A DNA stretch of 63,980 nt, counting the filler, from Hausera hauseri (Eukaryota): assembly GCA_046269625.1 (NCBI GenBank). It is 13 parts of 13 records of this genome, joined end to end, with 100 filler letters (N's around TTAATTAATTAA, not from the genome) between each part and the next. Parts side by side here need not be neighbours in the genome. Positions count along the whole stretch, not along the records: positions 1 to 4,066 come from JBJURY010783757.1; 12 more parts are not named here. The stretch is one strand, 5' to 3'. The notes beneath the pieces were generated by a model, which was not told where the DNA came from, searched no databases, and saw only the letters and a program-made list of their open reading frames with translations. Below are positions 1 to 55,018 of this stretch, in pieces (positions within the stretch are counted from its first letter, which is position 1; every line of letters starts with the position of its first letter). The translations under genes and the position numbers were made by a program.

Positions 1-816
1 CATCTCTTTTTTAATAAATTTCAATCCATGCTGATCCGAAATTAATATAGTAGGTGTAGAGTGTTCTGATACATCCTCACGTGTCCTTGAATTGGTTTCT
101 GATTTGTCCACATATCGCTTTCCCGTAGTCTAATTGAACTTCAGTTCTTCAATTTTAATAAAATTACAATTTCTTCCAGATGGAGGTTCCCATATTATGA
201 GAGAACTTCTAAAAGCACAGGTCCCGTCTTGTAAATGACATTTTTGATTCTCTGTATATAGTTTGGTGACACTATGGAACATTACCTTTTGTGATCGCAT
301 TTCCAATTCGTAAAAATCCACAACCACTACGTTTGCCTCTAATCCTTTTCCGTTGTCGTATTCTGCTCTATTACAATGTCCACTATGTATATCCAATATT
401 CCGGCCACTATTTTGTATGCCCTGATTATTTTTCCTGGCTGCATCTCTAATTGCATACTGTCCCATTGTATTCTTCTAGTTTCCTTGGCTTGCTTGCAAT
501 GTTGGAATTCTAAGTTCATTGGAATTAATGGAGTCGTTGGTTTAATTATAGATGAGTGTCCATGAACCAACCCACAGTGAAAAATACTACGCGATCGTCT
601 CAGCATACATTCCATTTCGTCTAGCGATATTAATTCTTGTTGCTGATACAGGAAGTAATACTTCTCTTTTGTCTCTAACTTGTGTGGTCTGGCATCTTCA
701 CATACTTCCAGATCCATTAGGGAATATCTCTGCCCTAGCTTAAACTTATCGCAGTCGTAGACAGTTACAGCACCTATATGCTTAATTAGCATTATCAAGG
801 TGAGTAAGCTAATTAG
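1..816 (-). pseudogene. Chuvirus-like glycoprotein, N-terminal half with internal signal peptide
   Basis: Hydrophobic WLISLLTLIMLIKHIGA then VYDCDKFKLGQRYSLMDLEVC. Cys pattern aligns with 57674 onward (AYDCSKPKEGQKYSLDDLEKC; SIIKPTTP vs EIIEPTTP). Frame continues past the TAG at 130-132 to the contig end. Confidence 0.8.
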
Positions 817-1539
817 CCAGTTCGATTCATTTTTCCAGCATCCAACGTCCGCCGTTGTCAAATTACGTAACATATCGTCGAGTTTATTTCTGTTTCGTCT
901 GTCTTCTTCGCTGTCAAGTAGTCTTGACCAATTTACTTCGTAGGGCAATCTTCTCGCTGCTTTTCATGTTAAGCTTACCGCTCTATTGATTTCGCTCTCC
1001 CGGTTAGGGTTTATCTTGACAGCCAAGTATAGTAGTACTTTTCTCAACTCTTCATTGGTATTTTCTACCATGATCCTTTCTATTACCTATTCGTCGGTTA
1101 AGTTACGTTTTGCTAGTTTAAAACGTAAACTTCTCATCATTCTAGCTGCTTCGAAAATTATCTTTTCCTTATCATCTAATGCATCATCTCGAAGGCTCGA
1201 ATAATTTACAATTCGTATTAAATTCTTCATTAACTCGCTTAATTCCTCATTGTTTGTACTGGAGTCGGAATCAATATCTGTCTCAGTTCTCTAATCAATT
1301 CTCCATTATAGTCAACTTCTTCACGCGTTTTCTTAGGTCTACCCATTGGACGTTACAGCTTTTGGCCCTTATTGGTTATTTCACTCGGTGGTACTAAATT
1401 TATATCATATTGTTCCTTATCTTTATCCGTTTGTAAATACTCAAAATTCATTGCAGCATCTCGGAATTCCATAATTTGTCCTATGCATTGCTCTGTCTTG
1501 GCCTTACGCGTGACTTCCTCTTTTGTCTGTTTATTAGAT

Positions 1540-1756
1540 ATTGTTATTACTATGAGGTTTGTTTCGTCGGGGATAATCCCGTCGTCTATTAATTGTTCTA
1601 GGTCGTCGAGTATTCTACCTCTAAAGTAGAATCTGTAATTTAGCTCGTTTGTTTCACCATTGTTTATCAACCTTTCTCTTATATCTTTTACATAGGAATA
1701 GGTAGTTAATTCGCATTCTTTTCATCCATCCACTCGGATGATATCATTACTTTCAT
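1540..1756 (-). pseudogene. Ubiquitin-like (beta-grasp) domain within the retroelement polyprotein
   Basis: Across one frameshift it reads MKVMISSEWMDE/ECELTTYSYVKDIRERLINNGETNELNYRFYFRGRILDDLEQLIDDGIIPDETNLIVITIS, matching ubiquitin MQIFVK...DTIENVKAKI...[20 protein letters not shown]. No C-terminal GG. Confidence 0.7.
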
Positions 1757-2459
1757 CGCTACCTCAGGTTTAGTCCTTAATATTTTAGCATATTTTTTAT
1801 TAAAAATTTCGGCACCGTGCTATAAATTATGTTCTCACTAGATAATTTAGTTAAAGTTGGAATAAGTTGTCTTAGTCTATTTTCAGTAATATTTACGTTA
1901 ATTAGTTCAACCAAATCTTTTTCAGTTAGCGCTGAATCCAGAAGCATTTCCACATTGAATCTCCTGTCTTGCGGACATGTTTCTATTTCGTTTAGCTGTA
2001 CTGGAGTCATAGGTTTTTCCGGCAAGTATTTCGTAGAAGTATGCATCCCATTTTGGTTCGTTACTGACCTCGGGAAGTCCAGTATCTATCCCAATTGTTT
2101 TTGGTCTCTGTACATTTTCCCTAATTTCTTTCAATCTTGGTTGTATTTCCTTCATCTGCGTAGTCGAAAAACCAACTCCATTTCCGCAGCCATATTGAAT
2201 CATTTTCAGTAATTCCCCAAATTCGTTAGAGTCGATGAGCCCCTTTTGGTGATAATCTGTTAATTCGATGATTACATCCTTTTGACATCTCTGCACAAAT
2301 TCTCGTTTATTTTTAATCTCTGATTCGGCAAAGGCATATTTGTTTCGATAGGCTTCAAGCTCTTTTGTTATCTCATCTAACCTTGTCGCTCTTTATTTCG
2401 TTTTGATACATGTTTCTTCTACTTTCTGTATCTTGGGCATCAATTGCCTCATCTTTTCG

Positions 2460-3842
2460 TCACTCATACATCTTATTTATAATCTTTGAGTCAGGGTCCA
2501 TTGCATCCGACAACTTCTTTACGAAATTGTATTCCTGGAAACTAAAATGTGGGTCATTTCTTATTTTTGTCAACGTGGTATGGAAATTCTGATCCGATCC
2601 GGCCATCCATTTTTGTGGTTTATGCAAGACTTTTATTACGTCGGTTAGCATTTCTCGATGTCCTGGACAAATGTCTAAGATTTCAATGTCTTGTACAGAA
2701 ATTTCGTCGATCGGTTTTCCTGTTAAGTATTGGACCCATTCTAGTCGGACAATCCTTAACTTTGAATTTACATCGTAAATCATATTCCGTTTTCCCGTAA
2801 AGTTCGTCTCTTCGATCAGTTTGTAGATTTCCTCTTCCATCATCAACGCTTCTCGTTCCTTTTCCATAAATTTCAGTCGTCGTAATGCTTCGAATTGAGT
2901 GCGAATGTCTATTTCTATCCGCACTGTGCCTAAATCATGTGCACTTTCCTCTAGATGCTTCTTTACCATTGGTTCGCTTTGAGGAAATTCCTTCTTTCGA
3001 TCTTCTACTAATTTGGTTAATCGCGTTATTAGTTCAGACCACTCCGGCAGTTGATTTGCGATTATCGGTTTTGCCATTATAGCCTTATCTAGAATCTTAT
3101 ATGCATCTTCTAACTCATTGTCTGGTCCTCTTAGGAAATTCATAATCCAGCCGGCATAACTGAATTCATTTTTATATTCGTCCAAATCTATAGTACAGGC
3201 TTTCACTATGTATTTGGTTTCTTCGTTATTTGGAGACATAATTCGGTTTTTCAAACTATAAATCTGTACTCGCTTTTCATTCTCTATCTTAATCCGATTT
3301 TCTAGGTTTGTATATTTTTTAGGTGTAGCAAATGCAATTTTTATCATCTCCATCAAGGAAGGAATATCTATTGGGCCTATACCCGATATTTCTAAATCGA
3401 TATTGCTTCGATGGTTAACCGGTTTTTCCCTAAGCCGATTAATCACTGCATTCCGGATTTCGTCCATCATACGTTCTATATTACGGACTACTCTCTTCAG
3501 TTTTGGTTTGGCTTCTAAGGTAGATAATAACGTTTGAGCTTTCGTAACTTTTACATCGACACTATCATCGTTTTTACTCCATCCTTCCGAAAATTCTACT
3601 CCGCTTTCAGTCCATGATTCTAATTCCTGCTTCCATTTTAACAACGTTTCGGTTGATACTTATTCGGGTTGTTTTAAGTTGATTGCTTCTTCAAGCTTAC
3701 CTTTACTGTGTAATTTTAGGATTTTGTATAATCTCTCCGCATATTGTTGTTCTTTTCCGGATATATCTACTTGTTCGCTGATCTGCTTGAGTCTTTCTAA
3801 ATTTTGCTGCAGTATTTCTCGATTGTGGTATCTAATTCTCAT
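2460..3842 (-). pseudogene. Long charged, probably helical region of unknown function in the retroelement polyprotein
   Basis: 394-aa open frame plus an upstream 60-aa piece, E/K/I-rich, no recognisable motif. Confidence 0.5.
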
Positions 3843-4066
3843 TCTTTTTATCTTGTTGGCGTTTTTCCATGAACGTCGGACGTTCCATTGTTTTGGGTCG
3901 AACTAATCGATGTTCACCGTTTTTTCCTCAATAGTGGAAAGTGGGCAAATTTTGTTAATTTCGTTTCTGGTGTATTCAAACTATGGTCCACGTTACTTTC
4001 TACAACGATGTTCGGATTCTCTTTTTCTTCATTTTTCTTTCTACTTATTTTGGAGCGTGACCGACT

Positions 4067-6879: not shown

Positions 6880-8210
6880 CCTATTGTTTTACTCGAAAAA
6901 GTCACCATAAACATCAATGAGCTACTCTAACCTGAATCGGAATCTATTGCAAGCCTTAATCAGTGTGTCCCCATCGAGGTCTGCCAAATCTTTCAGTGAC
7001 TTGCAGTCAATTAAGGACTTACCAGCAAAATAGGATGGTGTTAGCGATAGTGATTATGAGGAAACACAACTGGTTTGGTCAAAATACAGTTGCAACTGTC
7101 TGTTAGATTATATGTTGGTGTATATGAAACTTGACGTATACTTGTTAAGTGATGTCCTTGAACGGTTTAGAAAGGAGGTTAAGTTGCAAGATGGTTTAGA
7201 AGCCGCTAATTTGTCTCAATTCCAGGCTTAAGTTTGGCAACGGCACTGAAAACCAGTCCTTGTAAGATTGAACTTATCCAGGATCCTGAGATGTATCACT
7301 TCTTTCAGTCGGGTATTCACGGTGGCATTACTTTTGTAATTAAGCATAGGATTGTTACAGATGAAAGCAACAGTCTTTTGTATATAGATGTAAATAATTT
7401 GTACGGCTGGACTTTATCTCAACCTCTGCCATTTGCGAATCTGACTTGGATTTACGATGAGGACGTCTTGACCAATCTGATCCAACAATTACCTTTTATT
7501 GACTGTGTTAGGGAAAAACGAGGTTTAGTTTTTGAAGTGGACTTAAGCATTCCAACAGGCAAACATGATAAGTTGGACCAATTGCTCTTGCTCCAATCAA
7601 CCAATATCCTCCTGGTTCTAAAGTTAAGACATTATTGCTGATACATGAGCGTAAGTCCAACTATGTTGTTCACTATCGGCTTTTACAGTTGTACATCGAG
7701 TTAAGCGCTGTAGTTGAAAAGGTACATCGGGCTGTTGAGTTTGACCAAGGTTATTTCTTTAAAGATTACGTTGACTTAAATACTGCAAAGAGGGCTTCAG
7801 AAAATAATCCATTTGAGAAGGATTTCTTCAAGTTGAAGAACAATAGCTTGTATGGGAAAACAGTTAAAAATCTGTTGAAAAAGTCAAGTTTGAGGCTGTG
7901 TAAAAATGCTAAAAAGTTACTTACATATGCTAGTAAGGCGCAGTTTAAAGCCACCATTATTATAGCCGATGACCTGGTTGCTGTTCTTTTCGATAAAGAT
8001 ATGGTCACCTTAGATAGACCCTCATACATTGGTCAGGCCATACTTCATTTTTCTAAGTTGAGAATGTATGAGCTGAATTACATTGAGTTGGAATCATATA
8101 GACAACAGTTCAATTATGACCTTAATGTTGTTGCCAATGACACAGACAGTTTCTTTCTTGAATGTCACGGTGTTGATTTGCGAACACAGCTCTTTCCGGC
8201 AATGATAGCA
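6880..8210 (+). pseudogene. polB: Protein-primed family B DNA polymerase (Polinton/Maverick/adintovirus type), C-terminal part
   Basis: YMKLDVYLLSDV (ExoIII), GIHGGITF, LLYIDVNNLYGW (motif A), FFKLKNNSLYGKT (motif B), NDTDSFFL (motif C). Frameshifted. Confidence 0.9.
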
Positions 8211-8651
8211 GTAGGGGAAAAAAGAGTGTTCTGGGCCAAAGGGGGGAGGGGGGGGTCCACCCACGCACCAATTGACCAATCACAAGCGTCTCGCATGCTG
8301 ATTGGTTAATTCGACAACGGCGAGTNNNNNNNNNNNNNNNNNNNNNNNNNNNNNNNNNNNNNNNNNNNNTTAATTAATTAANNNNNNNNNNNNNNNNNNN
8401 NNNNNNNNNNNNNNNNNNNNNNNNNTTAAATTAGGGGATGTTTCTACAAGACCACAATTCTTTGTATGTAAAATTCTGAATTTTTCAGTTGTGTCAGAGT
8501 GAGAAATTGTGTCAATTATTTTGATTTTGGTAATGTGGCTTGTTGTGACGGCTTTGTAAAAAAATTTTTTTTTGTTATAATAAACAATAAATTTTGGCAA
8601 ACTCTTGAATTTTGATGTTTCTTACGCCGTTTTTTTTGCTATAAATTTCGG

Positions 8652-10133: not shown

Positions 10134-12408
10134 CTAACCGTACGGCAAGGGTTTTGAAAGCGCCCAGCCATACAAGTTATTAACGTATATGTACAACAGT
10201 AATGTGGTATCATCGCTGGTTACGTGATGCTTGTTGACAAATATCATTCCGTTACGAATACCAACATTAAACATTTGGTACATTTCCCGGTCTTTCAGTA
10301 GCTCGATATCCCAATCCAGTGACATCAGAGCTGATTTCCAACTCATTCCGGGAATTAAGTAAAAGTTGAGTGGCTCCAGTCTATCTTCCGGCAACGCTTT
10401 CGCTCGAAACGCCTGGAACACATCGGCTAATAAGTACACGTCCAGTTTAAGATACTGGAGCATGTAATTCAACATGTTTCTACAGCCCAGTTCTGTTAAA
10501 GATTTCTGTGCTCCCTGACATTCATCTTCTGTGATGTCTGTTCATTGCGGCGGTAATTCCTCTGCTGTCCGGATTTGCTCTTATGACGTTGCAAAGTCAT
10601 ATGGAAATATGCCTTTGCTGCGTGCAATATGTGTGGGGAAGTGCGTTGAAGTTATCGGCCCATCCGGCAAGGCATTTACCAGCTTTGCCAATGATTCATT
10701 GAGAAATTGCAATTAATCAAGGAAGTGTACCTGGAACCGGTTTATGCGTGAGGACAGGGACAGGTACTTCTCCATTGTTGTTGGGATTATGGACAGTTCC
10801 CAGTATGGAAATCCGTTGATGGCCCATTTCAGCATATAGTGACTATGATAACCTCGCAAATTATAGCCGCGAATGCCTTGTCAAATTGCATGTGTTGCAT
10901 GCTTCCCCCAAGTATCGACCGGTGAAATGATCATGGTCCGGAACGAGCAGTTCCTGTGCATCAAAAGTCAATGTTTTGTGACAGAAGTAACATTCATCGG
11001 TGGCAGCGAAAAGCAGTGGTTTATATTCGTCTGTCCATATCAAGGGCTTAGTGCTATTGTTACTGTACCATAGTGCGATTTCCGTTTCCACAATCGTTTT
11101 CAACTGTTGCAGGAAATCGTATATACAGTTCCAGCCATGAAAAGCGTAATATTGCAGTTGTCCGACGGCTTTTATTGGAACAACAAACATACCGACGGCG
11201 ATTAGAATGTGTTTTTAGTCGTACACTTTGTTCCGCGGTACGATTGCCTCGATATTGACATATACCACTTATGCTGGACTGTCTGTTTTTGACCAATCAC
11301 TTAATCTCAACTCCTTTTTGACTGGCATGACGTACATTGTTGTCCCTGATGAAGTTTTTCTCCACAGCGCCACATATTTTTCCCATGTGGCTTTTGACCT
11401 GAAATTATGTAAACATGTAGGGCACCATTTACAATTTATGCGCTTCTTGATCAATTGGTGGTGATCCATGTTCAGCAGTCTGTCCAAGTTGGTTAGTACC
11501 ACGTAGTGAAATTTATCTGCTTGCTCTAACAGCAACAAATTTACCGAGCGTTCATTCGGTTTTCGCCTGCGATAAATTATATCCACGTGTGAGTTTTAGT
11601 ATATCTCTTTGTTTGCTGATATTTCTACAATTGCGTTGTAACGGAACACGTTGATTGCCAGTGTGGAATTACGCCGTTCAAAAGCCGGAATGGTTTTGAG
11701 TTTCATCGGCATCCAACATTCGTCGTAGTCCAATTCTGAGAAATACTTATTGTACTGCTTTGGACAATTTGCATGATGTCTGGACACTTGATAATATTTC
11801 AGTATGGCCATGATGCTGTAAATAAAGCAATATTCGTCGTTAGTATTTTGTAAATTCACTACCGCCAGAGACTGCTTCAAGGATGCAGGTGTCGGCATGA
11901 ATTAACGTCCAGACAGGTAAATCATGTCAACCGTCTTGGTCAGAATAAAGCCGAGAGTAAAAATCTTTACAATTCGCCAACCAATGACCTTTTCGGTGTA
12001 GTTGGTAATTTTTCGTCAAGCTTTTCGCATACATCGGCAATAAAATCCTCGCAGTATGGTACGGCTCGATGTGACAGGTACCATTATTTCCTGTCACCCT
12101 GCAGATTTTTAAATTCTGCAAGTGCATAATATTGCACTTTGCAATAGTGTTGTTGTTGGAATTTGGCCACCTCTGATTCCAACCGGTTACGTACATTAGC
12201 GGGTACATCCTTCAATTGCGTTGCTATTTTCGCCGACGTGTCCACATTCATGTCCGCATACGATCTGTTCCGGTGGTATTTGACAGTAATGGACGGTTCA
12301 TGTTCCTACTGCTGCTGCTGCTGCTGTTTCTGACTTCTGTTGTTTTGAGAGTATTCATCCAAAGCTTGCTGATACTTGACGTTTCCTGTTACTTCTTGCT
12401 GAGTCCAT
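10134..12408 (-). pseudogene. polB: Protein-primed PolB (Polinton type) with endonuclease VII-like insertion, N-terminal to motif A
   Basis: AVVNLQNTNDEYCFIYSIMA, VNLLLL..HYVVLTNLDRL, CPTCLHNF, CYFC...PDHDHFTGRYLGEACNTCNL, YLKLDVYLLADVFQAFR, LLYIYVNNLYGWALSKPLPYG. Many stops and frameshifts. Confidence 0.9.
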
Positions 12409-12836
12409 TAATATTTCCTTTTTGGACCTCTGAAACTGTTCAAGTGATCCTTGTGAATGTTGTAGAATTGTTCATAATTGATTTCATCAACTATAGAACA
12501 ACCGGAAAAAACGTAGGCCAATTTCCCGTGTACCGTTATGGCACCTTAGTACTGCTCCATTACACTATGGCAACCATCAACGTCATGCACTCTACTACTA
12601 CAGTATCGCGGATATGTGGGGCAATGCACAACCATCATCTTCTTGGATCTCGTGAACAGACCGAGATGATGCTAATGCATCTCATAAAAGTCGGTGTACG
12701 TGCACGTGTTTTGAATAAAACACACGGGACACAGGTATGTGTCCTTGACCACTGAATAATATTTGGCTATTTCCTTGTGGCGTTGTCCACCCTCATGTAT
12801 ACGGGAGACACAATGCATGGGATATTACGAACATTT
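12408..12836 (-). pseudogene. Small Cys/His-rich protein with an internal tandem duplication, directly upstream of PolB
   Basis: Homologous to 51117-51550. Its TAA stop overlaps the PolB ATG (TAATG at 12410-12406). Confidence 0.6.
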
Positions 12837-13739
12837 CTGAATGATAAAATAATTAAAGTAAATGTTAAACTAAAAACAAATAAAAATGTATTAATTATAA
12901 AGAAATAAATTTAATTACAATACACCGTATTTTATACCCTTTACTGCAGTCTTAGACGTCACCTAAATCGGCCATAAACGTGCATCAACATTACTATTGC
13001 TACTCTAAATCAGATGGAAGAGTATACAAAAAGTGAAATTCAGAGATTGGTTCATGACATTTTTGTATTTGATGTACAATTTTTATGTGAGCTCACAGAA
13101 ACGAGAATAATGAGCAGGCGAGAGTATATTGANNNNNNNNNNNNNNNNNNNNNNNNNNNNNNNNNNNNNNNNNNNNTTAATTAATTAANNNNNNNNNNNN
13201 NNNNNNNNNNNNNNNNNNNNNNNNNNNNNNNNTTGACGGATTTACAGTCGTCCGAAAATAAGTTCGTGTGTTTAAATAATGTAAATGTGTTTTAAACAAT
13301 TTGGTAATTTTAAGTTGAATAAAGCATTGGATTTTTCTGCCATTTGGGACTTTTTTGCAATTTGTATATCGTTTTGTTTAATAATTACCAAATTTGGAAT
13401 TTTATCAATCATTTCATTTGGTGGAATTTTCAGATTATTCTTTTATTGGAATCTTACTATCGCTATAACAGGTATTTATCGGCCAGTCCTAACTACAGTG
13501 ATGCCCATGTTGATTTTGATCTTTGAATGATGCCAGCCTTTTCGAGTTCATTGAACTCTGATTCAACGACTTTTAGTCTACGAGGTGAAAATAGTCTGAC
13601 CTTTTGTCTGATAGGTCTTTGGTGTTCGGTGACTGTGGTGATAAGTTGTATAAGGCGGCTTGAAATTGATATCCTTTTTGAGTGTGCGAAAGCAAGAAGT
13701 TGTGATATAGGATATGAGAATGGAATTCATCGATGAGAA

Positions 13740-15450
13740 TTATTAAGGCACATTATCAGAAGCGACAGTGTATAGTATTGGCGAGGAACAAACGTAACTG
13801 CCACCATCAACACTGCGTTTACTCGGTTGTTTTAAAACCGACTTAGATACGTTTGATGTAATGGAAGAAATGGATGAAGTACTAAATGTACCGTTATTAG
13901 TCGACAAACAAGTTTTCAAATTTACACATGAATTAACAGCCGAAAACAACGGCGTTTCTACTGGGCTATTTGGTAGACATTTGTTGGCATCTACGATGGA
14001 ATTTCTGCTCAGCAGACAGCGATACTTGCAGTCAACTAGCAGATCATGTTAGGCCAGAAAATCTGAGCCGATTATGGGGAATTTAATATTTGTCACGTGG
14101 AACTTCTAGACAAACTTATCTGGCTAGTTGGCAAATGTGAAAATCAGTTCCATGGTACCTGCGATGTGCGACGGTTGACCACTGGCAGTGAAAATCTGTG
14201 GAGAAGAAACTGTGGTAGATGTAGGAGTGAAGGATAAGGGAAGGAGCGAAAAGGCAGCTCCTGAATCAGTAAGAAAGTCGATATGTGAAACATTGTTGGG
14301 GAGCAATGCAGCTTTTAACAGCAAAACTGCTGAGGCGGTGTTAAGAGGGCCAGAAGATTCAGCGGTATTGCTTATACCAGAATGTGACGTGGCATCTGGC
14401 GGCGTTGTTAGTTTTTTGAGGTTTGTTGGGAAAAAAAGGAATGAAAACAGCGAGGAGAGGAAGAAGAGGGAGAAAAACTAGAATTCTTTTTATAATATTT
14501 GCATCCTGGCACACACGACCTAGCCGTGGACTGATACTTTGTGTGATAAGTGCAGATTGGGCTGTCTACTGCATAAGGTTCGTCGTAAAATTTACAGCCA
14601 AAAAGACATTTCCTTGCGTTTCTGTGGAATTTGTTGTGATAAACAAATTATTCGCCCATTTCGAGATTTGGATCGAAGAGAATGACTGGAAATACTACGA
14701 TCACGCGAAACACGGTTTTCACATCGTCGAGCCACAGATAACTTACTAAATTAGGCTCTAATTGCAGAAATTGCTTGTTGAAGTGTGTCGAATTGTTTCT
14801 GCATCATTTGCAATTGTTGTGAAAATAAAATGTTATCTGCGTGTGATGGTGAGTGAGCGGTTGCTGCAGCTACTGCTTGTGAGTTGTTAAATTGAAAGAT
14901 GTCGAAATTTTTATCTGCCAATAAGGCGAGCTTTTCAAGTGCCATTGAATCGTCTACGACAGTCAGCAATGTTCTGATGGAAGTGCGTAAGGAAGAAAGA
15001 AAATACCAACAGAGAAGATCAGCATTGTTTGTAGGAGTGAAGCCTAAGGAACTCAGTTGAGAAATTGCGGTTTTAAGGAAATCAGACGGCTTTTGAGTTC
15101 CGATAGCATGTTCATTAAAGTATTTTTGTATTATATTGTCAATGGAAGGGTCGGTAATATGTAGGAATGATTCATAGCGCATGTCATGTGGATTTGAAGA
15201 GGTGAGTATATCGGCAAGATTATTGATTTGCTGCTTGATATTTGTTGGAAGAAAAAGCAGCAAGCTGTTTGCACGCAAGAAAGAATCGGTGATACGATTG
15301 GTTTTAAGCCATTGCAAATGAAATTGTAGCCAGGTGCGACTTGAATTAGTTTTGTCAAGGAAAAAATCTGTGCAAGGCAAATGGTATAGGGTCAGCAGGA
15401 TGACGACCAGATCTGGTCTTGGTGGAGTTTTCGGCATAAGAAAAATCGGA
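13740..15450 (-). mobile_element. Ty3/Gypsy CsRn1-like gag-protease remnant
   Basis: Gag IGTQKPSDFL..FLSSL..IRTLL..LEKLALLADK; CHCC knuckle CxYHNKFHRNARKCLFGC (frameshifted); protease FLTDSGAAFSLLP...PIIGSDFL..HDLLVD. Confidence 0.85.
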
Positions 15451-16559
15451 GTCCGATCCACCCCGTAGGCGAAAGTGGAGAGTGAGGTGGATGATTGGGG
15501 AGGAAAAGGAAGAAAGCTGGTCATGGACGTTAAGTATAGAACATGATACGAGAGATAAAAGTCGGAGGAGTGGAGTGGAAGGATAGATGTGTGCAGGCGA
15601 TGTAAAGTATCTCTGTGTTGCACTGAAGGTATAGAAGTGTATATTATTGAAAAAGACAAACAGGGATAAGGGATGTGGTACAGAGGGGCCGAGCACGCTT
15701 GGTCCCTCAGTCCGACAATTCATTGGTAGCACAAATAAAAAAAATAATTGTAGTCCAATTAAAATTACTTTGAATTTGACTTTGTGCGTTTTCTTGGTTT
15801 CTTTCTTTGGCAAGAATTTCTCCGCCTTTTCCATGTATGAGGCATCGCCACAACTTTGAGATAGAATGCTGTTCAGAGCTTTATTTTTGACAATTTTGTC
15901 ACAGAGAGCTTTAGAACGAATATCAGTATTTCTAAGAGCAGTCGTAGTGTTGATATTAACTGCAGGCCTGTGATCCTTCAATATTTGTATGAGTGGATGT
16001 TTCTCTGCATTGTTTAACTACAAAGTGAAAATATAACAACTGAATTGAACAAATTAAAATATCTTGGATCAGTGTTGTTATTGAGTTTGATGGCTGGGCA
16101 ATTGTAAATAAACTGAATAAAAAGCTGATCACTCAGAGCTCTGGTGTAATTAAGATTCAGAAAATTGCTTGAAATTAAACTTTCGACAGACGCAAAAGGT
16201 TCCTTTATAAAACGACAAATAGCAATATGAAGACATCGGAATTCCCTAAAGAGAGTAACATGACCATAGTACATGGTCATCATCAGAATTTTCCGAAAAT
16301 CCATCGATAACAGTCAACGTTTGATGCTCGGATGTTGTGTCGTGTTTGATGATAAAATATTCGTTGCCCAACGATATGTTGGTACCGCATGGTGTTTCAA
16401 TCGGATTGTGCCACCAATGAGGATTTATAAAAGGATTCAGAAAAAGGATATTCTTTATCCAAAGTCATTCATGAATTTCCGGCAGCGCACGTGACAATTT
16501 GAATACTCCGAATCAAATAATCAACGATAAAAATACTGGCCTGATATTCCTTTTTAGCA

Positions 16560-16975
16560 TTTTTGCGAAACAATGGTTTCAGTGACGGATGTGATTTTGC
16601 TGCCAAGGCTCCTGGGGCTTTATCAACGAACATCGAATTGAATACATCTTCTAATTCACTATTCATCACAAGACCTTTTATGGCGTTCTGTAAGTTGATA
16701 AGCGTCATTCTAACAAAAGAAATAAAACGAGTAAATCTAATTAAATCGTGTCGCAGAACCTTCATTGGGTCCACTCCAGGAGAAAGAACAAATGTCAGAG
16801 GCGAACAGCGATTGGAATCATTAAAAGAACTCTTAAGATCAAATATAGGATAATCAATATATGTTTGGCCAGGATTTTCAACAACAAAGGTTTGAACAGC
16901 TGGTATAATTGTATCTGGCCTAATACACCTAAGAATAGCCAATCAATCGAAACCTTTAAGAGATACCAAATGGCC
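16560..16975 (-). pseudogene. Axonemal dynein heavy chain fragment (DNAH3/7/12-like), internally deleted
   Basis: ILRCIRPD..PAVQTFV...FDLKSSFNDSNRCSPLTFVLSPGVDPM is joined to VLRHDLIRF..LINLQNAIKGLVMNSELEDVFNSM..KSHPSLKPL. In-frame stop upstream, TTTTCAG acceptor near 16976. Confidence 0.85.
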
Positions 16976-24011: not shown

Positions 24012-24483
24012 AGGGCCCAAGTTGAGAATTGATAGCATAAGTTTAAGGTCGTAAGACCAAATAAATTTTACACCTTCTAAACTTATCAATTCTGACAACT
24101 GTATTTATAACACTTTTGATTCTGACCTTGATGTTTTTACCCAATAGAATTTTAGACTAGAAATATTAACTAAAACAAAAAATTTGAAGTAATTAATTTT
24201 CATTCTTATTCACATTACCCATTTGTATTAATCTTTAAATTTAAAACCATAAACAACCTAAGAATACCATCAGTTCTGAAATAATAAACAGACCAAATTA
24301 GAACAAATTCTGTAAACAAAATTGCGATTTATTTGTAAAGTTTATTTATAAAATTATTTGTGCAGATGAAATATACATTTCTATTTGGAATGTCTTCCTA
24401 GGTAAGAGTTTCTTTCTTTATTGTAATTTTAACTTTCCTAATATTTATTGCAATCTAACTTTACTAACATTGCCCCACGCTTA
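24012..24483 (-). mobile_element. Putative PPT plus start of a 3' LTR
   Basis: The minus strand reads AAGCGTGGGGCAA then TGTTAG (TG at 24469) after the last ORF piece, followed by non-coding AT-rich sequence to the contig end. No second LTR is available to confirm. Confidence 0.35.
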
Positions 24484-25408
24484 AAGATTTGTACTTTTAT
24501 TTATAGGTGAAAAACGCTATAAAATATAATTACAGTACATATACCATGCAACAACAAAAAAAACTGAAATTACAGAGATATAAGAGTAAAGGAAAGAAAA
24601 TTAGATCACATAGTTCAATTAATCAGATTGTTATCACGTCAATGTCCTCCCTATCAGTCTTTTTGTTTTCCTTCGTGATTTCTTCTGGTTTGTTCGTCGT
24701 GTTGTTTTCTCCTGTCATTTCTTTGGGTATTAGGTTGTTTCGTATTTTAGCCAAAATGTCAGATGGTTTCCTCTCCTGATCAAGTCTAATCTTCTTCCGA
24801 AGCTTCACTGTTTCTACTGTATTTCCAAAGTGATAGTCATATTCATCATCCTTAAACAGTCGGTAAATTGAGTATTCTTGTTCGTCGTCATTCATTTCCT
24901 TTATCGGAATCCAACTGTTTTTTTTTCTTGCCTAACTACTAGTAATCCTGATAAAGTATGAGCGCTACTCTTTGTAACAACATTGGTAATCGCTTGTGCA
25001 GGGATAACTACTTGACATTTAAGTTCCTTAATGTTCGAAGCTCTTTCCGGGTTCATCTCAATTTTGAGATCTAAAATATCTGTAAAATTTCTGTAAGGAA
25101 TAAGTAATTTTCTTTCCCCAGTTGTTTTAGTATACTGTATTGCTATCAATCTATTACCAATTGACTCCCAGTCCGTTATCTGCTTATCGAATTCCTAATT
25201 GTAACGAAGCACTTTTCTCTTCCATAATCTCATCCAAGACTATAGGAATTATTAAGCCATTTCCCATAACTGCTAACAGTAATCCATTAATTCGAACTTT
25301 ATCTTTATTGGAATTTATAAGAGTACGGAGTAAGTCTTTCATCAATTCGTTACCCTTTATAGGTTCTGTTTGGACAGCTACGTTGGTAAAGTTTATTGTA
25401 TTCCAGTT

Positions 25409-26299
25409 TCATTTGGTGCTCTTAGTAGGAATTTCTTCATCATCGAACATTGGTTCTAGGATTTTACAATCCATCGTTTCGAATTCCTCTTTGTCAATCA
25501 TTTCGTCAGTTTTTATCGATTTAGTTTTATTTCCTTTCGTAAAAGTGGCATCGGTTTCGTATTTCCATTGCAATCCAGTTAAATAGGATTTATCACGATT
25601 TAGGAGATCTCCATGATCTAGAATATTATTGTGTGGGTCAGCTGGAACCCACTCATAGGTCTCTTTCAACTTTCTGTGAGCCCCTATATTGGGCTGAAGT
25701 CGTCCTTTTGTGGTGCTAGGAAATTTGTTTATTTGTAAAAATTCTATTAGTTGACTTATTGTCCTAATTCGGTTGTCCATAGTATTCGCAACATTCTTCA
25801 ATGGATCAAAAACTGCACATGCTGTATTCATGGGAATACACAACGCTTTAAAGGTTTTGTATGCTTCTAACGTCACTATTTTATAACCCAAGATATATTT
25901 TTTGATTTCTATTTGCACAGTTCGAGAGTCCATTCCATTCTTAATTTTGTCCCATGAGATGTCATGTCGTATATTATTTAAGTTGTGGATTACTCTTCTA
26001 TGTGTTGTCACTTGGTTAAAAACAATATCATCATTCTTTTCAGCTATTATTATCTCTACTGGGAGCTGGACCTGCAGACCATTGGATTTATGTCCATATG
26101 CAAATGATACAGCTATGTATCTAATGCTGTTTGATTTACTAGTATATAAAATATTCGGTTCTCCCATAAGGTCTTCTTCAGTCGGTTCTTCCTTATATTT
26201 CAAAGGCAATAAGATTGGAATTTTTCTTTCTCTAAAAATTTCTATCATTCCTATATTAAGTATCTCTTGATATGAGTCTGGTTCTTGATGGGTCGACAA
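25409..26299 (-). CDS. REXO4/ISG20-like DEDDh exonuclease fold with degenerate active site, probable retroelement cargo
   Basis: YIAVSFAYG..VEIII..IVFNQVTT..HDISWDKIKNG..TVQIEIKKYILGYKIV..FKALCI parallels YVALDCEMVG..VSIV..VYDxYV..SGIRPENLKQG..VVQKEVxxxLxGRILVGH..DLKVL. The acidic residues are absent. Confidence 0.55.
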   Translation of the reverse strand: MSTHQEPDSYQEILNIGMIEIFRERKIPILLPLKYKEEPTEEDLMGEPNILYTSKSNSIRYIAVSFAYGHKSNGLQVQLPVEIIIAEKNDDIVFNQVTTHRRVIHNLNNIRHDISWDKIKNGMDSRTVQIEIKKYILGYKIVTLEAYKTFKALCIPMNTACAVFDPLKNVANTMDNRIRTISQLIEFLQINKFPSTTKGRLQPNIGAHRKLKETYEWVPADPHNNILDHGDLLNRDKSYLTGLQWKYETDATFTKGNKTKSIKTDEMIDKEEFETMDCKILEPMFDDEEIPTKSTK

Positions 26300-26948
26300 G
26301 ATAGTTTATCTGACAAGATTCCTGTTCTGAAATAATTTCTAATGAGTTTTTACGCTCTCTTCCTTTCCCGAATGTTAGCATAATTTTTCCTATTGCCAGG
26401 TATACAGTTATTCCTTTGTTGTTTGATGTCCATTGTGGTAATCTAAAGGTTGTATCTGAATTGAATATCTTAAAAGGTAAAATTTGACGATTACGCTGTT
26501 CCTCGTATTTGAATGCGTTGGGAATCTTTGTAACTTCATTTATTGGACTTACCGAATTATTGATTTGTTCCATTATGTTATCATAAAATGAATAAGTCAT
26601 TTGTTTTCTGTACTGAGCTTCTGAATTCCGTTATCATCTTTATCTCTCCATATTGGATATTTGAAGTAATTCTGCTTTCCAATTTCTGTAGTTTTGCCAA
26701 TTAGTCGTTTGCTTCCGGATTCCGTAGCCGAATTGCATATTCTCTTAGACATGTTTCTTTGTGCCACTATATAACAATTTTCTTCGTTTTTATATTCCTT
26801 CAGATCTACTCTGATTTTGTAGCCAATCGTATTTTCATAACTTTTGTTCTTATTGGCCGATGTTTTCAAAAGGGTATGTAATATTATGATTGGTCAAATC
26901 ATCATACTTGCTACGAGTGTGTCTTTCATCAGGTTTTCCTTAAGGTAA

Positions 26949-28101
26949 TTACTCAACCCTATTAACTAGACTAAAAATCACAATGGGTGCAAAGCAAAAC
27001 ATAGTGCTTGTCATTTCATTTACATTCTCTTCATTACTTGCTATCATGTTTGAAGCTGTAGGCTCTCTATTTCGATTTTGCTCCTCAATTCTATTTAATT
27101 GTGAGCAAATCTGATTTCCTCTAATTATAGAGTAATATGATTCATCATTTTTCTTTTTACATCTGGGTTTTTTACCCAATGCAATACTTATCATAAGGAT
27201 TATTCCAATACCTGCTATTAATATGAATATCCACCAGTATTGTAATATATATTTTTCGGTAGTTATAATTGAAACACTAGTTAATTTCTATTTTTCGTCG
27301 TCGTCATTATATCTTATGTGACGGTATTGATCTATTGCTGGTTGTGTTTTTATGGCCACAATCTTTGAATTATCTAAGGTCTCTATTCTAACAAGGTAAT
27401 TAGTATCGGGTGTTAGTTTTTCACAGAAGTTTCGTTTATTTGTCTCGTACTTGATAATAACTTTTTCATGAGAACCTGTGCAAGTTAGTGTAATATTTCG
27501 TTCATTTATTGTGTTTTGCAATATTATTTCAATGCGATCTGTATAAGGCTTTAATTTGAATTTGATAGGAAATTCTTTCATCCATTGCGTGGTTTAGGTT
27601 GGACTGTTGATTCTCGATCCCGATCTCGATTTGGCTCACGATTTTGATCACGGTCCGCTCGATCTTTCTCTCGATCTCCCCTACCTTTAATGGTGGGTAT
27701 AGTCCATAATGTTGATGTTGTCGGTTTTTTCACAGAATGTGGTGAAGTTATATGTTGCTTAGCAAAAATCGGAATAGGTATGTGTGGTTTGACCGCGAAG
27801 AGAATAGGAATACGGTGAGAATGCACTCTAATAGATTGTTTATTTTCCAGCGTTTGGTATGCATCTAAACGGATTCTGTACCAGACGTATGGATAGAGTG
27901 TGCAACATGAACGGGTATCATTCCGCTTAAGATAACAATAATGTAGTTGTTTTATAGATGTAGAGTTTGGATCAAGCCATATGCTGATTTCGAATTCAAT
28001 TGTAATAACTGCGTAGTGCGAAAATTCATACAAGGTGGTTGTCTTGTAATGTTGATACTAGAAAATTCAATATCATGTTTTAAGAAGTGAGCGATAAAAG
28101 G
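26949..28101 (-). pseudogene. Type I membrane protein: two FN3-like domains, TM helix, basic cytoplasmic tail
   Basis: CTLYPYVWYRIRLDA and CEKLTPDTNYLVRIET (LxPxxxY tyrosine corner). After one stop it reads WWIFILIAGIGIILMISIALG-KKPRCKKK in frame. Confidence 0.6.
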
Positions 28102-28201: not shown

Positions 28202-31200
28202 TTATCGAGAAAAGAAATACCCGGTGCAAAAACCAAAATCGATAAGAAAGACGTAAAGTTAACGCAATATTTCGATAATAAGATTGACTTTCTGATCAAT
28301 TACGTAAGGAAAGAAATTAGAGGTTTATATCGTGAAATAATAATGAACGAGTGTAAGTTGAATTACGAAATAATGCGTAATAAAATGGCGCTGGTAATAA
28401 CAAATCCGGACATGGTAGCACCTGTAATGCCTTTCGGTGATGGAATTATGGGCAGAATAATGGGCGAGGTATTAATAACAATAGAATGCAAAAGGGTAGA
28501 AGTATCGATTAGACCCACGGAAGAATGTACAATGGAGCTACCTGTTGTTTACCATTCTGAAGCACGATACATTATGCCAGTAACTAGGATACTTCTCGAT
28601 GCTAATGTAAAGCCCACTCCGTTATACAATTGTACTTTTAACATGTCACCGATGTTTAAGATTGATAATGATAAATGGATAAGAATGCCCAAGAGAGAAC
28701 CAATATCTAAACCAGAGACATTGAGTTTAATTAATTTACAAAGAAATCAAAAATTTGAACCGCTGACCGGAATATCACAGGGAGGAATTTATACACAACA
28801 AAATTTAGAAGATTATCGACGTATGTTGTTGTTTCCTCAGCAAAGACAGAGGGTCATAACGGAATTGACAAGGAAAGTAATGTGGGATGGTGAAGGTTCA
28901 CCACAGTGGGAAAACCTTATGGGCAAGGATTATCTAAAGAAGGTGACAAAAAACGTAATGGAAAAGATGTGGGGAAAGTTCCTGTATTTTGGTCAAGCAG
29001 CCTCCGGTTTTCTAGCCATATATTTTATTATTAGTGCCATTCGAACAGTATTTACGGCACTCGGTAAAGCATATGGAATACATGCAGCAGTAGGATGCTC
29101 CTGGAAGATTTTAATAGCGGTAATACCAGCAGTAGCAAGTTGCTTCTTGGCAAACCATGATGCCCGATGGAAGAAGAAAATATTAAAAAGGAGAGACATG
29201 AAAGAATCCCTATATAGTATACCGGATGATAATGATGTTGAATATAGCCAAAGGAAAGTAAAGAAACGAGTACCTAATATTAAACAATTAATGCTCAAGA
29301 CACGAAAACCTAAGTACAAACAGAAATTAATAACAGATCTACCTCGTTTAGATCCCGCGGATGAGTATCATGGGCAAATTTATAATGAACAACCGTTAAT
29401 AAATCCTTCGGCTCCCCGATACGTGGTACATGCAGGACTGTACCCTACGCAACAAGTACAACAGATGAGACAAAGTCTTGATGACAATATAGTCCCTTAT
29501 AAGCGTGAATCCACATACATCGTTGACGATAAAAACGAACAACAACCACCAATAAGACCCGAAATTGAAATAGAAGTGAACGGGTACCCCATGATGGCTT
29601 TGTTAGATACTGGGTCAACCACGACGATAATGAGCAAGAGCCAATTACCAAAGGAATTAAGAAAAAGGTTAAGAAAACCAACCACCACAATGGTAAACGT
29701 AGGAGCCTTCGGTACGGAAGAGGAAATCAAAATGGTCCTAGATGCTAAAATTAAAATTGGTGAGCAAACCTTGAAGCATACCATAAGAATAGCCGATAAT
29801 TTGACTAATGAAATTTTAATTGGATGTGACGTATTAAATCAATTGAAAGACGCATATATCGATATGAGAACATGTCAACTGAAGACATTCAGTGAAGACT
29901 GTAATGAAGGAATGGTTTCACTAACAAAAGACATTACAATCCCACCGCGGTCGGAGATAATAGTCCCGGGAAGAGTAGAAAGTCGAACGTTACCAGAGAT
30001 TATTTATTTTGAAGCATTCCCTCAAGTCATGGAGAAATATGAAGTACTAATTGCCCCTCATGTAGATAAAGTAAGAGATGGGAAAATCCATTTACGCATC
30101 TGCAACACAACGAATAAAGAGAAACGATTACGAAAAGATACTAGATTGGGAAAAGTAATAACAACGGAAGAAATAATAAAAGAAGGAATTTACTCAGTAA
30201 TATCAGACGTGGATAGAATAGAAAAAATGATGACAAAAAAATTGAAAAAGAAATCAGACGAAGACAAAAGAAATAAAACCACGAATATTGATTGGAACGA
30301 AAGGTTAAAAAAATGCGAAATTCTAAGTAAAGAAGAAAAGGAAATGTTAGTTAAACTATTAGAAAAGAATGCCAGTCGATTCGCACAAACCGACTATGAT
30401 CTCGGTACCATGAAAGTAATACAGCATGTTATTAAATTGAAGGATGGACAAGATAAACCAATTAAGAAAAGACCATACCGACTGGCCTATGATAAGAAGC
30501 AGGAAGCTCGCAAAATAATAAAAGAGATGAGAGAAAATAAAATAATTCGACCAAGCTGTTCACCATGGACAGCGCCAGTAGTAATGGTTAAAAAGAAAGA
30601 CGGAAGTATGAGATTTTGCATAGACTATAGAGCCTTAAACGAAATAACAGAAACGGACACATACCCATTACCGAGAATCGACGAGATACTGGATAAATTA
30701 CACGGATCAACTATATTCACAACTATCGATTTACAAAAGGGTTATTGGCAAGTGGAGGTTAAAGAAGAAGACAAACCGAAAACAGCCTTCTCAATTGGAG
30801 AAGGGTTATGGGAGTTCAATCGGATGCCCTTTGGACTGAAGAATGGACCTCCAACGTTCCAAAGAGGAACAGAGCTCCTGCTGTTGGACGCTCCACACGC
30901 CATGGTATATATAGACGACTTAATAATAGCATCATCAAATTTTCAGCAACACTTAAAGTATCTGCAAGATCTTTTTGATAGATGCGAGATAATGGGCCTA
31001 AAAATAAACCCTAAGAAGTATTCATTTGCACAAGCGGAGGTAGCTTTCCTCGGACATAAAGTAGATAGACATGGTGTAAGACCTCAGGATAAGCTCTTAG
31101 GGAAAATAAGAGATTTCCTTAAGCCAAGTACAGTTAGAGAACTACGTCAGTTTCTAGAGTTAGCCAACTATTATCGAAGATTCATAAAGGATTTTAGTAA

Positions 31201-31459
31201 AATTGCTAAACCTCTGTACGAGTTATTACGCGAAGATTTAAACAATGTCATTTGGACCAACGAATGTCAGAAAATTTTCGAATATTTAAAAGATAGATTA
31301 TTAACGGCTCCTGTATTAATCTACCCAGATATGACCAAACCATTTATTTTGGCAACGGATGCAAGTGATTATAGAATAGGAACAGTATTATTACAAAAGG
31401 GCGAAGATGGAAAAGAACATCCTGTCGCCTATGCTTCACGAAAACTTAATAAACATTAA
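28202..31459 (+). CDS. Polyprotein: chuvirus-like glycoprotein C-half, TM segments, aspartic protease, RT, RNase H (5'-truncated, premature stop in RNase H)
   Basis: One frame open from the contig start. GEVLITIECKRVEV..RPTEECTMELPV..PVTRIL, GGIYTQQNLEDYRRMLLFP and WGKFLYFGQAASG match chuvirus G motifs. Then ALLDTGS, RFCIDYRALN, YPLPRID, MPFGLKNGP, YIDD, LATDAS. Confidence 0.92.
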   Translation, partial: LSRKEIPGAKTKIDKKDVKLTQYFDNKIDFLINYVRKEIRGLYREIIMNECKLNYEIMRNKMALVITNPDMVAPVMPFGDGIMGRIMGEVLITIECKRVEVSIRPTEECTMELPVVYHSEARYIMPVTRILLDANVKPTPLYNCTFNMSPMFKIDNDKWIRMPKREPISKPETLSLINLQRNQKFEPLTGISQGGIYTQQNLEDYRRMLLFPQQRQRVITELTRKVMWDGEGSPQWENLMGKDYLKKVTKNVMEKMWGKFLYFGQAASGFLAIYFIISAIRTVFTALGKAYGIHAAVGCSWKILIAVIPAVASCFLANHDARWKKKILKRRDMKESLYSIPDDNDVEYSQRKVKKRVPNIKQLMLKTRKPKYKQKLITDLPRLDPADEYHGQIYNEQPLINPSAPRYVVHAGLYPTQQVQQMRQSLDDNIVPYKRESTYIVDDKNEQQPPIRPEIEIEVNGYPMMALLDTGSTTTIMSKSQLPKELRKRLRKPTTTMVNVGAFGTEEEIKMVLDAKIKIGEQTLKHTIRIADNLTNEILIGCDVLNQLKDAYIDMRTCQLKTFSEDCNEGMVSLTKDITIPPRSEIIVPGRVESRTLPEIIYFEAFPQVMEKYEVLIAPHVDKVRDGKIHLRICNTTNKEKRLRKDTRLGKVITTEEIIKEGIYSVISDVDRIEKMMTKKLKKKSDEDKRNKTTNIDWNERLKKCEILSKEEKEMLVKLLEKNASRFAQTDYDLGTMKVIQHVIKLKDGQDKPIKKRPYRLAYDKKQEARKIIKEMRENKIIRPSCSPWTAPVVMVKKKDGSMRFCIDYRALNEITETDTYPLPRIDEILDKLHGSTIFTTIDLQKGYWQVEVKEEDKPKTAFSIGEGLWEFNRMPFGLKNGPPTFQRGTELLLLDAPHAMVYIDDLIIASSNFQQHLKYLQDLFDRCEIMGLKINPKKYSFAQAEVAFLGHKVDRHGVRPQDKLLGKIRDFLKPSTVRELRQFLELANYYRRFIKDFSKIAKPLYELLREDLNNVIWTNECQKIFEYLKDRLLTAPVLIYPDMTKPFILATDASDYRIGTVLLQKGEDGKEHPVAYASRKLNKH

Positions 31460-50169: not shown

Positions 50170-50908
50170 TTCTCACACCCAGAAAATGAGGTCAAGCAAA
50201 AAGGTTCGGACTAGATGATATCGATAACAAGTGACAAGATGAGCAAAAGCTAACAGATGTGAGGCTTACAGAAATGTAAGAGAGAGGCGCTAGAACAGGA
50301 AGAAGCAAATCGGGAAATGCTCTACGTGTAACGCCAAACATGTTGCTAGCACTAAGAAAATGTGTTCAATTGGTACATTGATATTGACGATTGCAATGGA
50401 CACTGTTGCAAGTCTGTCAGACCATGGGAATATGTGCAAAAACCGATGGGAAAATTTCAAGCGGGTAAAATTTCCCATGTTCAAGTCTGCCGATGATGGA
50501 AATTGATCTAATACATTGCCCATAAACTGGGGAAAATTTTATATTATAGCCGCTTCACGATCGAACCAATGGATCGGGGTGAGAAACGCAATCAAACGAA
50601 CGAACGAACCAAAAAAGCGCAATGTTAAAGTCAAAATCATTATAGTAGGTAGAGTGTCCTCTCCTAACCACTTCCCAAAAAGTGCTCAGATCGAGCTGGA
50701 AACCAGTTTTCCACACCTGTCTCGCAATTCTGAGCATTTCATGTTTTGTGGTCGAAGACCTTCCCCCAGCCGGAAGCATATGTCACATGTCGCACATGTC
50801 GCCGTTCTCGTTTCTGTGAGCTAATATAAAAACTGTACATCAAGCACATGTCCGGACAAAATGTCATCGGTCAATCTTTGAATTTCACTTTCAATATACT
50901 CTTCCATT
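50170..50908 (-). pseudogene. Decayed unknown ORF of the PolB element, divergent from the small-gene/PolB unit
   Basis: Start MEEYIESEIQRLTDDI is conserved with MEEYTKSEIQRLVHDI at about 13014 (+) in the homologous contig. Confidence 0.4.
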
Positions 50909-51116
50909 TGATTTATACAAATTAAGTGCTGAGAATGGTAAATGTTTATAGCTGAGTATGTTAAGCCCTCAGACCACCACCACCACCATAACAACAACCA
51001 CCATAGAAGGAGCGGTATAAGGTGCGGTGATTTAAATGAATTTTAATTTAAATTATAAATGCGTTTATATATATTGTATGACATTTAACATTTACTTTAA
51101 TTTGTTTCTCATTCAG

Positions 51117-54894: not shown

Positions 54895-54912
54895 TGGTGC
54901 CGTGACCCGGGA
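54895..54912 (+). promoter_or_regulatory. Primer-binding site complementary to the tRNA-His 3' end
   Basis: TGGTGCCGTGACCCGGGA vs tRNA-His PBS TGGTGCCGTGACTCGGAT, located right after the LTR-end CA. Confidence 0.85.
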
Positions 54913-55018
54913 CCTTTAGATAAAACCTTTAGAGAAGCAGAAGTAGTTAGTATTCAAAATTACAACTACGAAGGGAACACCTTACCAAGTAGAACCAGAC
55001 GATAATCCGCTCTTTGGA

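Follow-up and report, generated by a model that had tools for sequence, protein, structure and literature searches.

The window analysed here, a 63,980-nt stretch of Hausera hauseri DNA, is made up of 13 unrelated segments of 4-8 kb each, with N spacers between them. The minus strand of segment 1-4066 is uniformly A-rich (A 0.36-0.44 per 300 nt) and carries, at 1-1756, the cassette under study, in which a ubiquitin-like domain (UBL), a basic GRP motif, a Bcl-2-like helical domain, a signal peptide and a chuvirus/gB-type glycoprotein (G) follow each other in that order. The features of this segment are the following:

1922-3980, minus: decayed reading frame or frames of about 700 codons on the same A-rich strand, not gag
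1757-1940, minus: probable position of a small helical domain, which in relatives stands ahead of the UBL; not significant by itself
1530-1756, minus: type II UBL (beta-grasp) lacking a C-terminal diglycine; its first strand is read in a different frame from the remainder
1637-1575, minus: UBL motif YRFYFRGRILDDLEQLIDDGI, from the sequence
1470-1505, minus: helix after the UBL, KAKTEQCIGQIM, aligned to the copy at 57 kb
1329-1352, minus: RPMGRPKK, basic GRP[RK] motif with the non-canonical core MGRP, from the sequence
913-1245, minus: degenerate Bcl-2-like helical domain, ~110 codons, two in-frame stops
766-816, minus: internal signal peptide of G, from hydropathy and the start of the PF24664 match; proposed to be the C-terminal anchor of the upstream module too
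762-751, minus: VYDC of G, from the sequence
1-771, minus: chuvirus/gB-type fusion glycoprotein ectodomain, N-terminal part, interrupted by a stop at 130-132 and truncated where the segment ends

The cassette is colinear with 56562-58330, on the segment 52107-59773, where a second copy (the 57-kb copy) provides the comparison. A third piece lies on 28202-33165. Their features are:

54895-54906, plus: tRNA-His primer-binding site of the 57-kb copy, 12/12 complementary to the His_GUG 3' end (PMC13524379 supplement 1)
54947-56041, plus: Gag capsid and CCHC knuckle of the 57-kb copy (zf-CCHC E 2e-4; 52% to the Gag of P0002, iE 3.5e-50)
56652-56882, plus: UBL of the 57-kb copy, by profile and Pfam ubiquitin
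57003-57023, plus: RRGRPRG, AT-hook-like motif of the 57-kb copy, from the sequence
57120-57505, plus: Bcl-2-like domain of the 57-kb copy, by leave-one-out search, with a frame break and in-frame stops
57602-59322, plus: signal peptide and G of the 57-kb copy (PF24664 E 2e-35 and 1e-27; hydropathy)
28202-32918, plus: third copy in Env-Pol order: the C-terminus of G shares a frame with protease, RT and RNase H, and integrase comes next

The initial annotation had read a UBL, KAKTEQCIGQIM, RPMGRPKK, a hydrophobic signal and VYDC on the minus strand, and all of these motifs were found again at their places. It had also described the similarity of the two regions as evident at the protein level only, and this is borne out: G matches 57632-58306 with 34% identity over 230 aa (tblastn, E 1.5e-33) and the UBL is recovered in a leave-one-out search with p=0.0005, while blastn with a word size of 7 gave no match between the regions. 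When 49 region pairs were compared by the Smith-Waterman algorithm with 1000 shuffles each, p fell below 0.01 in four pairs, all of them colinear: UBL with hook (0.004), UBL core (0.006), the helix before the signal (0.001) and G (0.001), the UBL pairs being such that they alone would fail a correction for 49 tests. What had been overlooked in the earlier description of the cassette as UBL, hook, signal and G is the Bcl-2-like domain between the hook and the signal.

The copy at 1-1756 is a pseudogene. The uninterrupted ORFs by which PMC13524379 recognises an intact errantivirus are broken here by four in-frame stops (130-132, 964-966, 1087-1089 and 1353-1355, minus) and two frame changes, one near 1706-1745 and the other near 1240-1290. 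Segment 1-4066, which ends inside G on one side and at 4066 on the other, shows no gag, CCHC, pol or LTR, and the 2.3 kb upstream of the UBL contain no CCHC or gag similarity.

With the 1-1290 piece as query (stops replaced by X), phmmer found 54 proteins at E<=0.001 in the full library. Fifteen long or N-terminally extended relatives were scanned with Pfam, and the N-terminal parts of 16 were inspected. Four relatives (P0004, P0005, P0013, P0021) continue from G through protease, RT and RNase H to integrase in a single ORF. A CCHC knuckle lies upstream of G in P0002, P0006 and P0021 and a Gag domain in P0037, and the best match, P0002, has Gag-CCHC, UBL, RGRP, a helical domain, the signal and G in one ORF. 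The Pfam matches of pol are of the Ty3/gypsy type, with Ty3_capsid and Retrotrans_gag in the relatives. In the third window copy, PF24664, RVP, RVT_1 and RT_RNaseH_2 share one open frame of 1085 codons, and Integrase_H2C2 and rve follow downstream. The intact relatives thus have one ORF in the order Gag, accessory region, signal, G ectodomain, transmembrane segment, protease, RT, RNase H and integrase. We are highly confident of a GAG-ENV-POL architecture with an accessory module, and 1-1756 itself is best explained as the remains of a Ty3/gypsy LTR retrotransposon of this type, env included, that is now dead. Two or more aspartyl-protease-like domains stand in tandem after G in P0005, P0006, P0011, P0012 and P0037. 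Word-based searches with the accessory region of P0002 against shorter proteins and with the G of 1-1756 against longer ones yielded 0 of 4137 and 0 of 925 candidates, respectively.

The G piece at 133-963 matches PF24664 with E 8.7e-18. The hydrophobic segment at 816-766, whose Kyte-Doolittle 17-mer value of 2.11 is the sole one of at least 1.6 in the 430 codons of 1-1290, immediately precedes the conserved YDC with which G starts, and more hydrophobic segments follow the ectodomain. A tree of G was built from 25 rows, namely the 23 of the 54 relatives that span the N-terminal ectodomain and two window copies. The 1-1756 copy sits on a long branch in it, and since most of the group is poorly separated and the bootstrap did not converge, we claim no order of gains and losses from this tree.

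The UBL of the 1-1756 copy is detected by profile rather than by pairwise search: plain tblastn against the 57-kb region gave E 0.5 only, while a profile made from five database relatives with window sequence excluded ranked this copy second among 78 window frames (12.5 bits, iE 4e-4; the best of 20 whole-window shuffles reached 4.8 bits), and it scored 25-26 bits in the leave-one-out search. The UBL of the 57-kb copy scored 40 bits in the same way and matches Pfam ubiquitin with E 0.035. Among the relatives the domain was confirmed by leave-one-out in P0002, P0004, P0006 and P0017; an apparent UBL in P0018 (p=0.10) was not counted. Foldseek and VIA-align confirm the beta-grasp fold with an rmsd of 1.3-1.6 A at only 10-22% identity to ubiquitin-fold chains, and in the P0002 model a helix follows right after the UBL (residues 156-174). 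Neither the two window copies nor P0002 have a diglycine after the last strand, and the position that we take to be equivalent to Ile44 of ubiquitin is H, I, Y, D, W or Q across six sequences. These two features make it likelier that the UBL is an integral domain for docking or folding than that it acts as a cleavable ubiquitin or a ubiquitin mimic. In this it resembles the type II UBLs of ubiquilin, Rad23, UHRF1 and midnolin, which are likewise integral beta-grasp domains without a terminal diglycine, but it differs from them in that its Ile44 patch is not conserved and in that it is packed after a small helical domain. The arrangement of DDI1, in which a UBL, a helical domain and a retroviral protease follow each other, was considered as an analogy and set aside, since G and a membrane intervene here between UBL and protease.

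That small helical domain is present in the UBL-bearing relatives (P0002 model residues 1-74, equal to P0002 383-456, pLDDT about 90), and its counterpart in the 57-kb copy is at 56385-56650; a direct comparison of 1757-1940 with the 57-kb copy was not significant. Farther upstream, 1922-3980 has no Pfam match at E<=0.1 for its two largest pieces, no homologue and no Atlas or credible PDB match; it resembles neither the Gag of the 57-kb copy nor any of the 54 relatives, and a word-based homologue search with the upstream 399-aa ORF gave 0 of 3386 candidates. The PDB matches obtained with the upstream ORFs, to NDUFS5 (E 0.27) and uL29 (E 0.22), give the impression of coincidental similarity between helices, and a SAM-like pattern noted by eye at about 2520-2780 lacks Pfam support at E<=10; both were discarded. 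The region is possibly further accessory cargo, for which the more than 900 residues upstream of the UBL in P0017 provide a precedent.

The AT-hook of the initial annotation stands as a motif and must be qualified as to type: RPMGRPKK is present at 1352-1329, but its core is MGRP and not the canonical RGRP. The core is RGRP in the 57-kb copy, P0002 and P0006 and PGRP in P0005 and P0012. GRP[RK] occurs five times in the 54 relatives against 0.75 expected and a maximum of four in 200 shuffles; it always lies upstream of the signal peptide and was found in four of the 16 relatives inspected (P0002, P0005, P0006, P0012). The hook is positionally conserved and may serve nucleic-acid binding or localisation. 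A stop precedes it closely in both window copies (1353-1355, minus; 57000-57002, plus). Programmed read-through was rejected as the reason, because the codons and offsets differ and P0002 is open at this site, and the two stops probably arose by independent decay.

A leave-one-out search recovered the region 913-1245 at 12 bits, with p=0.001 when the stretch itself was shuffled for the null, but in a scan of the whole window it scored 1.3 bits, inside the null distribution; BH2 is not recognisable in this copy, and no window piece has a direct Pfam Bcl-2 match. We regard it as a weak, degenerate, putative member of the Bcl-2-like family, whose Bcl-2 identity is transitive through its relatives. 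The domain of the 57-kb copy scored 66.7 bits in the leave-one-out search and is 40-52% identical to that of P0002; the domain was confirmed in the same manner in P0002, P0003, P0011, P0017 and P0051, and its members recognise one another at 29-91 bits. In alignment A2, Pfam PF00452 matches four of the 11 rows (best E 2.1e-5, all scores below the curated cut-off of 31.4 bits), the match of P0002 spanning model positions 6-100 of 100. Residues 9-82 of P0003 match Bcl-xL/Bcl-2 chains of the PDB, the best 60 of 61 matches being all of the Bcl-2 family, and with the A2 profile the best 60 of 98 PDB matches are all Bcl-xL-containing or UBL chains (E 0.007-0.16). An hhalign result was set aside as circular, as the alignment included the same window piece. 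The glycine of the BH1 motif NWGR is replaced in all six sequences that cover the site, and BH2, (W/Y)-(I/V)-xxx-GGW, is kept in all five intact relatives having the domain. In the four relatives measured, 25-57 residues separate the BH2-like end from the hydrophobic signal that follows; a C-terminal hydrophobic segment after the domain, which is also the signal peptide of G, is found in both window copies as well.

Structural modelling is in agreement with this assignment as far as helix count and order are concerned. In the AlphaFold model of P0002 383-756 (pLDDT 75.9) seven helices occupy 243-370, with a long hydrophobic helix after the BH1 position, and their number and order fit Bcl-2. 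Helices 5 and 6 are long and amphipathic. A single-sequence fold of the whole P0002 reached a pLDDT of 34. In Foldseek and VIA-align searches with the two-domain P0002 model, UBL matches fill the lists and no Bcl-2 chain is among the matches listed, an outcome that weighs neither for nor against the fold; there was no usable Atlas match for the Bcl-2-like domain. The viral structure library gave two matches of ~147 columns (ranks 15 and 48; target-normalised TM-scores 0.54 and 0.44; rmsd 11.3 and 7.4), which may be vBcl-2 proteins and to which we attach little weight; one of them, Q8BEN2, we take to be a BHRF1 homologue. Taken together, the helical domain very probably has the Bcl-2 fold. By homology, the accessory region in this lineage consists of a unit of helical domain and UBL, a basic GRP motif and a Bcl-2-like domain, the last being weak in the 1-1756 copy.

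It had been proposed that the cassette is old, shared between subfamilies and maintained by selection. Its age is supported: the 1-1756 and 57-kb copies share about 35% identity in both G and the UBL core, and the UBL and the Bcl-2-like domain recur in the four and five database relatives named above. As to selection, the claim holds for G in the two closer window copies (pS 0.77, pN 0.067) but is not demonstrable for the 1-1756 copy. Between the latter and the 57-kb copy, identity at third codon positions is 0.38-0.39 against 0.51-0.60 at positions 1-2, and dN/dS is about 0.43 for G and 0.71 for the UBL, values that are unreliable with synonymous sites near saturation. In comparison with P0002, the Bcl-2-like domain of the 57-kb copy is 40-52% identical against 22-28% in the linkers and the pre-UBL helical part, and purifying selection on the domain in the 57-kb lineage is suggested. 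To speak of the same cassette throughout is too strong. The UBL and the Bcl-2-like domain occur together in two of the 16 relatives, several having neither, and some records start too late to show a UBL; in P0014, P0021 and P0037, Gag runs to the signal with neither domain between. The Bcl-2-like domain is missing from P0004, P0005, P0006, P0012, P0013, P0014, P0021 and P0037 and is therefore dispensable in the wider group, and scans of all 54 relatives revealed no further UBL or Bcl-2-like domains. Judged by these sequence comparisons, the region between Gag and Env is an accessory slot of variable content, and the cassette is modular and not fixed. DEDD-exonuclease-like stretches were seen by eye between Gag and Env of P0013 and P0017, with no Pfam support.

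Other elements share the window. The minus strand of 24012-28101 is A-rich and coding; it contains a stretch at about 27560-27150 that is fibronectin-III-like and transmembrane, and an ORF (25412-26305) that by eye resembles a DEDD exonuclease and has no Pfam or PDB match; this may be the accessory region of another retroelement. The fragments 7034-8306, 10137-11900 and 52107-54522 are mutually similar and DNA polymerase B gene-like, presumably of Polinton/Maverick type. Decayed copies of a second Ty3/gypsy-like family, in which no env was seen, lie at 13496-15719, 34279-36365 and 60422-63978. A repeat is present in two copies of opposite orientation (11854-13130 and 50742-52006), up to 87% alike over 271 nt. 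Finally, 16469-16942 (minus) resembles, by eye, a dynein heavy chain fragment, suggesting a pseudogene or an exon.

The type of element is known. GAG-ENV-POL errantiviruses with an env of the HSV/gB type are described from Nematoda, Bryozoa and Platyhelminthes in the accessible text of Chary and Hayashi (eLife 2026, PMC13524379), which cites Sacco et al. 2022 for such elements. Going by this host range, an invertebrate animal is the probable host here. According to that text they have, like the elements described here, a Ty3/gypsy pol, a chuvirus/gB-type env between gag and pol and a signal peptide before the ectodomain; what sets the present elements apart is the UBL and the Bcl-2-like domain carried within the one ORF, after Gag and ahead of Env. 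In the main text and the searched supplementary files of PMC13524379, ubiquitin, AT-hook, Bcl and accessory domains receive no mention; its figure supplements, which are images, may carry domain labels of relevance to the novelty. The Anakin BEL/Pao elements and chuvirus glycoprotein EVEs, as presented in the consulted parts of PMC7642597 and PMC10084718, show capture of the same PF24664 family by an LTR retrotransposon, whereas in our case pol is of the Ty3/gypsy type and G is upstream of the protease. Exchangeable accessory domains are also known from LTR elements of bdelloid rotifers (an extra ORF3, DEDDy exonuclease, GDSL esterase), but these are separate 3' ORFs, and Bcl, ubiquitin and AT-hook occur 0 times in the portion of PMC5408684 at hand. 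No Bcl-2-like or UBL domain in an LTR retrotransposon was found in titles and the openings of abstracts, a result that is provisional, with most subscription papers and the Repbase annotations outside its reach. We know of no description of a viral Bcl-2 in a reverse-transcribing element. Thus, while the element type is known, the UBL and Bcl-2-like cargo and the proposed use of the signal as a tail anchor appear to be new.

Viral Bcl-2 proteins are encoded by large DNA viruses, examples being BHRF1 of EBV, F1L and M11L of poxviruses, A179L of ASFV and E1B-19K of adenovirus. For BHRF1 an anti-death role is documented in the accessible part of PMC4063692. The domain described here shares with these proteins a divergent Bcl-2-like sequence, BH2 (in its intact relatives), a C-terminal hydrophobic anchor and residence in a selfish element. 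It differs from them in being part of a retroelement polyprotein, in having an envelope signal peptide for an anchor, in the absence of the BH1 NWGR and in that its function is putative. Since the canonical NWGR is absent, anti-apoptotic activity is unproven; some viral Bcl-2 proteins do bind BH3 without it.

By analogy with viral polyproteins in general, the following sequence of events can be envisioned. The internal signal peptide would insert into the ER membrane during translation, and signal peptidase would free G into the lumen, while the signal would stay behind and anchor the C-terminus of the cytosolic Gag-accessory part in the membrane. The Bcl-2-like domain would thereby acquire the topology of a tail-anchored Bcl-2 protein. 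After the transmembrane segment of G, Pol would be back in the cytosol, and the element's protease may release the domains. By analogy, the most likely role of the Bcl-2-like domain would be that of viral Bcl-2 proteins: it would keep the producing cell alive while enveloped particles are made, via control of apoptosis or autophagy through a non-canonical, divergent groove. Given the fold, we put the chances of a survival function at about even, and we somewhat favour this explanation as a whole. A bolder reading, namely that an enveloped Ty3/gypsy clade captured a Bcl-2-fold gene and made of it a membrane-bound anti-death protein by using the envelope signal peptide as tail anchor, in a slot that also takes UBL, hook and exonuclease-like domains, is put forward tentatively, as somewhat less likely than not.

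The domain could have the Bcl-2 fold and yet play no part in cell death, serving instead as a scaffold to block signalling, innate-immune or other, in the manner of the poxviral A46, B14 and K7-type proteins. Loss of the BH1 glycine in six of six sequences, the high divergence from cellular Bcl-2 proteins and the presence of other cargo in the same slot, such as the by-eye exonuclease-like regions of P0013 and P0017, would fit this. However, the poxviral scaffolds are not known to have either BH2 or a C-terminal anchor, while here BH2 is kept in five of five intact relatives and an anchor follows it, so that we hold such a role to be unlikely. A function in particle assembly or exit, by Bax/Bak/Bok-like membrane insertion or as a matrix-like tether of Gag, would agree with the position of the domain between Gag and the membrane-anchored signal, where a link of Gag to the membrane is needed, and with the amphipathic character of helices 5 and 6 in the model. 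The Gag-Env-Pol relatives P0014, P0021 and P0037 do without the domain, which argues that assembly does not need it, and membrane remodelling in place of a survival role appears less likely still.

The remaining alternatives concern the UBL, the state of this copy and the nature of the segment. The UBL might be a built-in ubiquitin that provides a cleavage site for host deubiquitinases, as in the ubiquitin fusions of cytopathic BVDV and baculoviruses, or a mimic of the Ile44 patch, bringing in ESCRT or the proteasome to assist budding or turnover. Its close fit to the ubiquitin fold and its location C-terminal to the nucleocapsid, where retroviral late domains also sit, speak for it, but with the diglycine missing, the Ile44 position variable and the identity to ubiquitin-fold chains so low, we find it improbable. 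Equally improbable in our estimate is that a module useful in an ancestor has been drifting in the 1-1756 lineage, where it survives only to keep the polyprotein frame open. It is true that the UBL and the Bcl-2-like domain of this copy are 22% and 26% identical to P0002, no more than the linker (25%), that BH2 is lost and that the branch in the G tree is long; yet the core UBL pattern persists at 35% identity to the 57-kb copy despite near-saturated third positions, and the order and spacing of all four units are kept. Lastly, segment 1-4066 could be a fragment of an RNA virus that became endogenised, or a different element by which module and G were acquired together, since it shows no gag, CCHC, pol or LTR and its roughly 700 upstream codons resemble nothing, the accessory regions of relatives included. 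Against this, the nearest and long relatives of the 1-1290 piece are retrotransposon polyproteins; stand-alone chuvirus-like G proteins of 650 aa score far lower and form a separate clade (100/100); no match to a nucleoprotein (N) or polymerase (L) lies upstream in Pfam, as one would look for in a chuvirus EVE; and P0017 shows that a long region before the UBL has a parallel. We consider this origin very unlikely.

The copy at 1-1756 is dead, and its worth is that of a divergent witness to the age of the module. Between Gag and Env, the accessory slot offers concrete domains, each of which can be tested separately, and the design is an economical one in which a single hydrophobic segment could act as signal peptide and as tail anchor. 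Large DNA viruses are known to use Bcl-2-fold proteins. The mechanism by which most env-bearing elements outside Drosophila are transmitted is unknown, according to the accessible text of PMC13524379. A Bcl-2 fold in a retrotransposon polyprotein, if true, would suggest that enveloped retroelements of invertebrates manipulate the survival or signalling of the host cell in the way complex viruses do.
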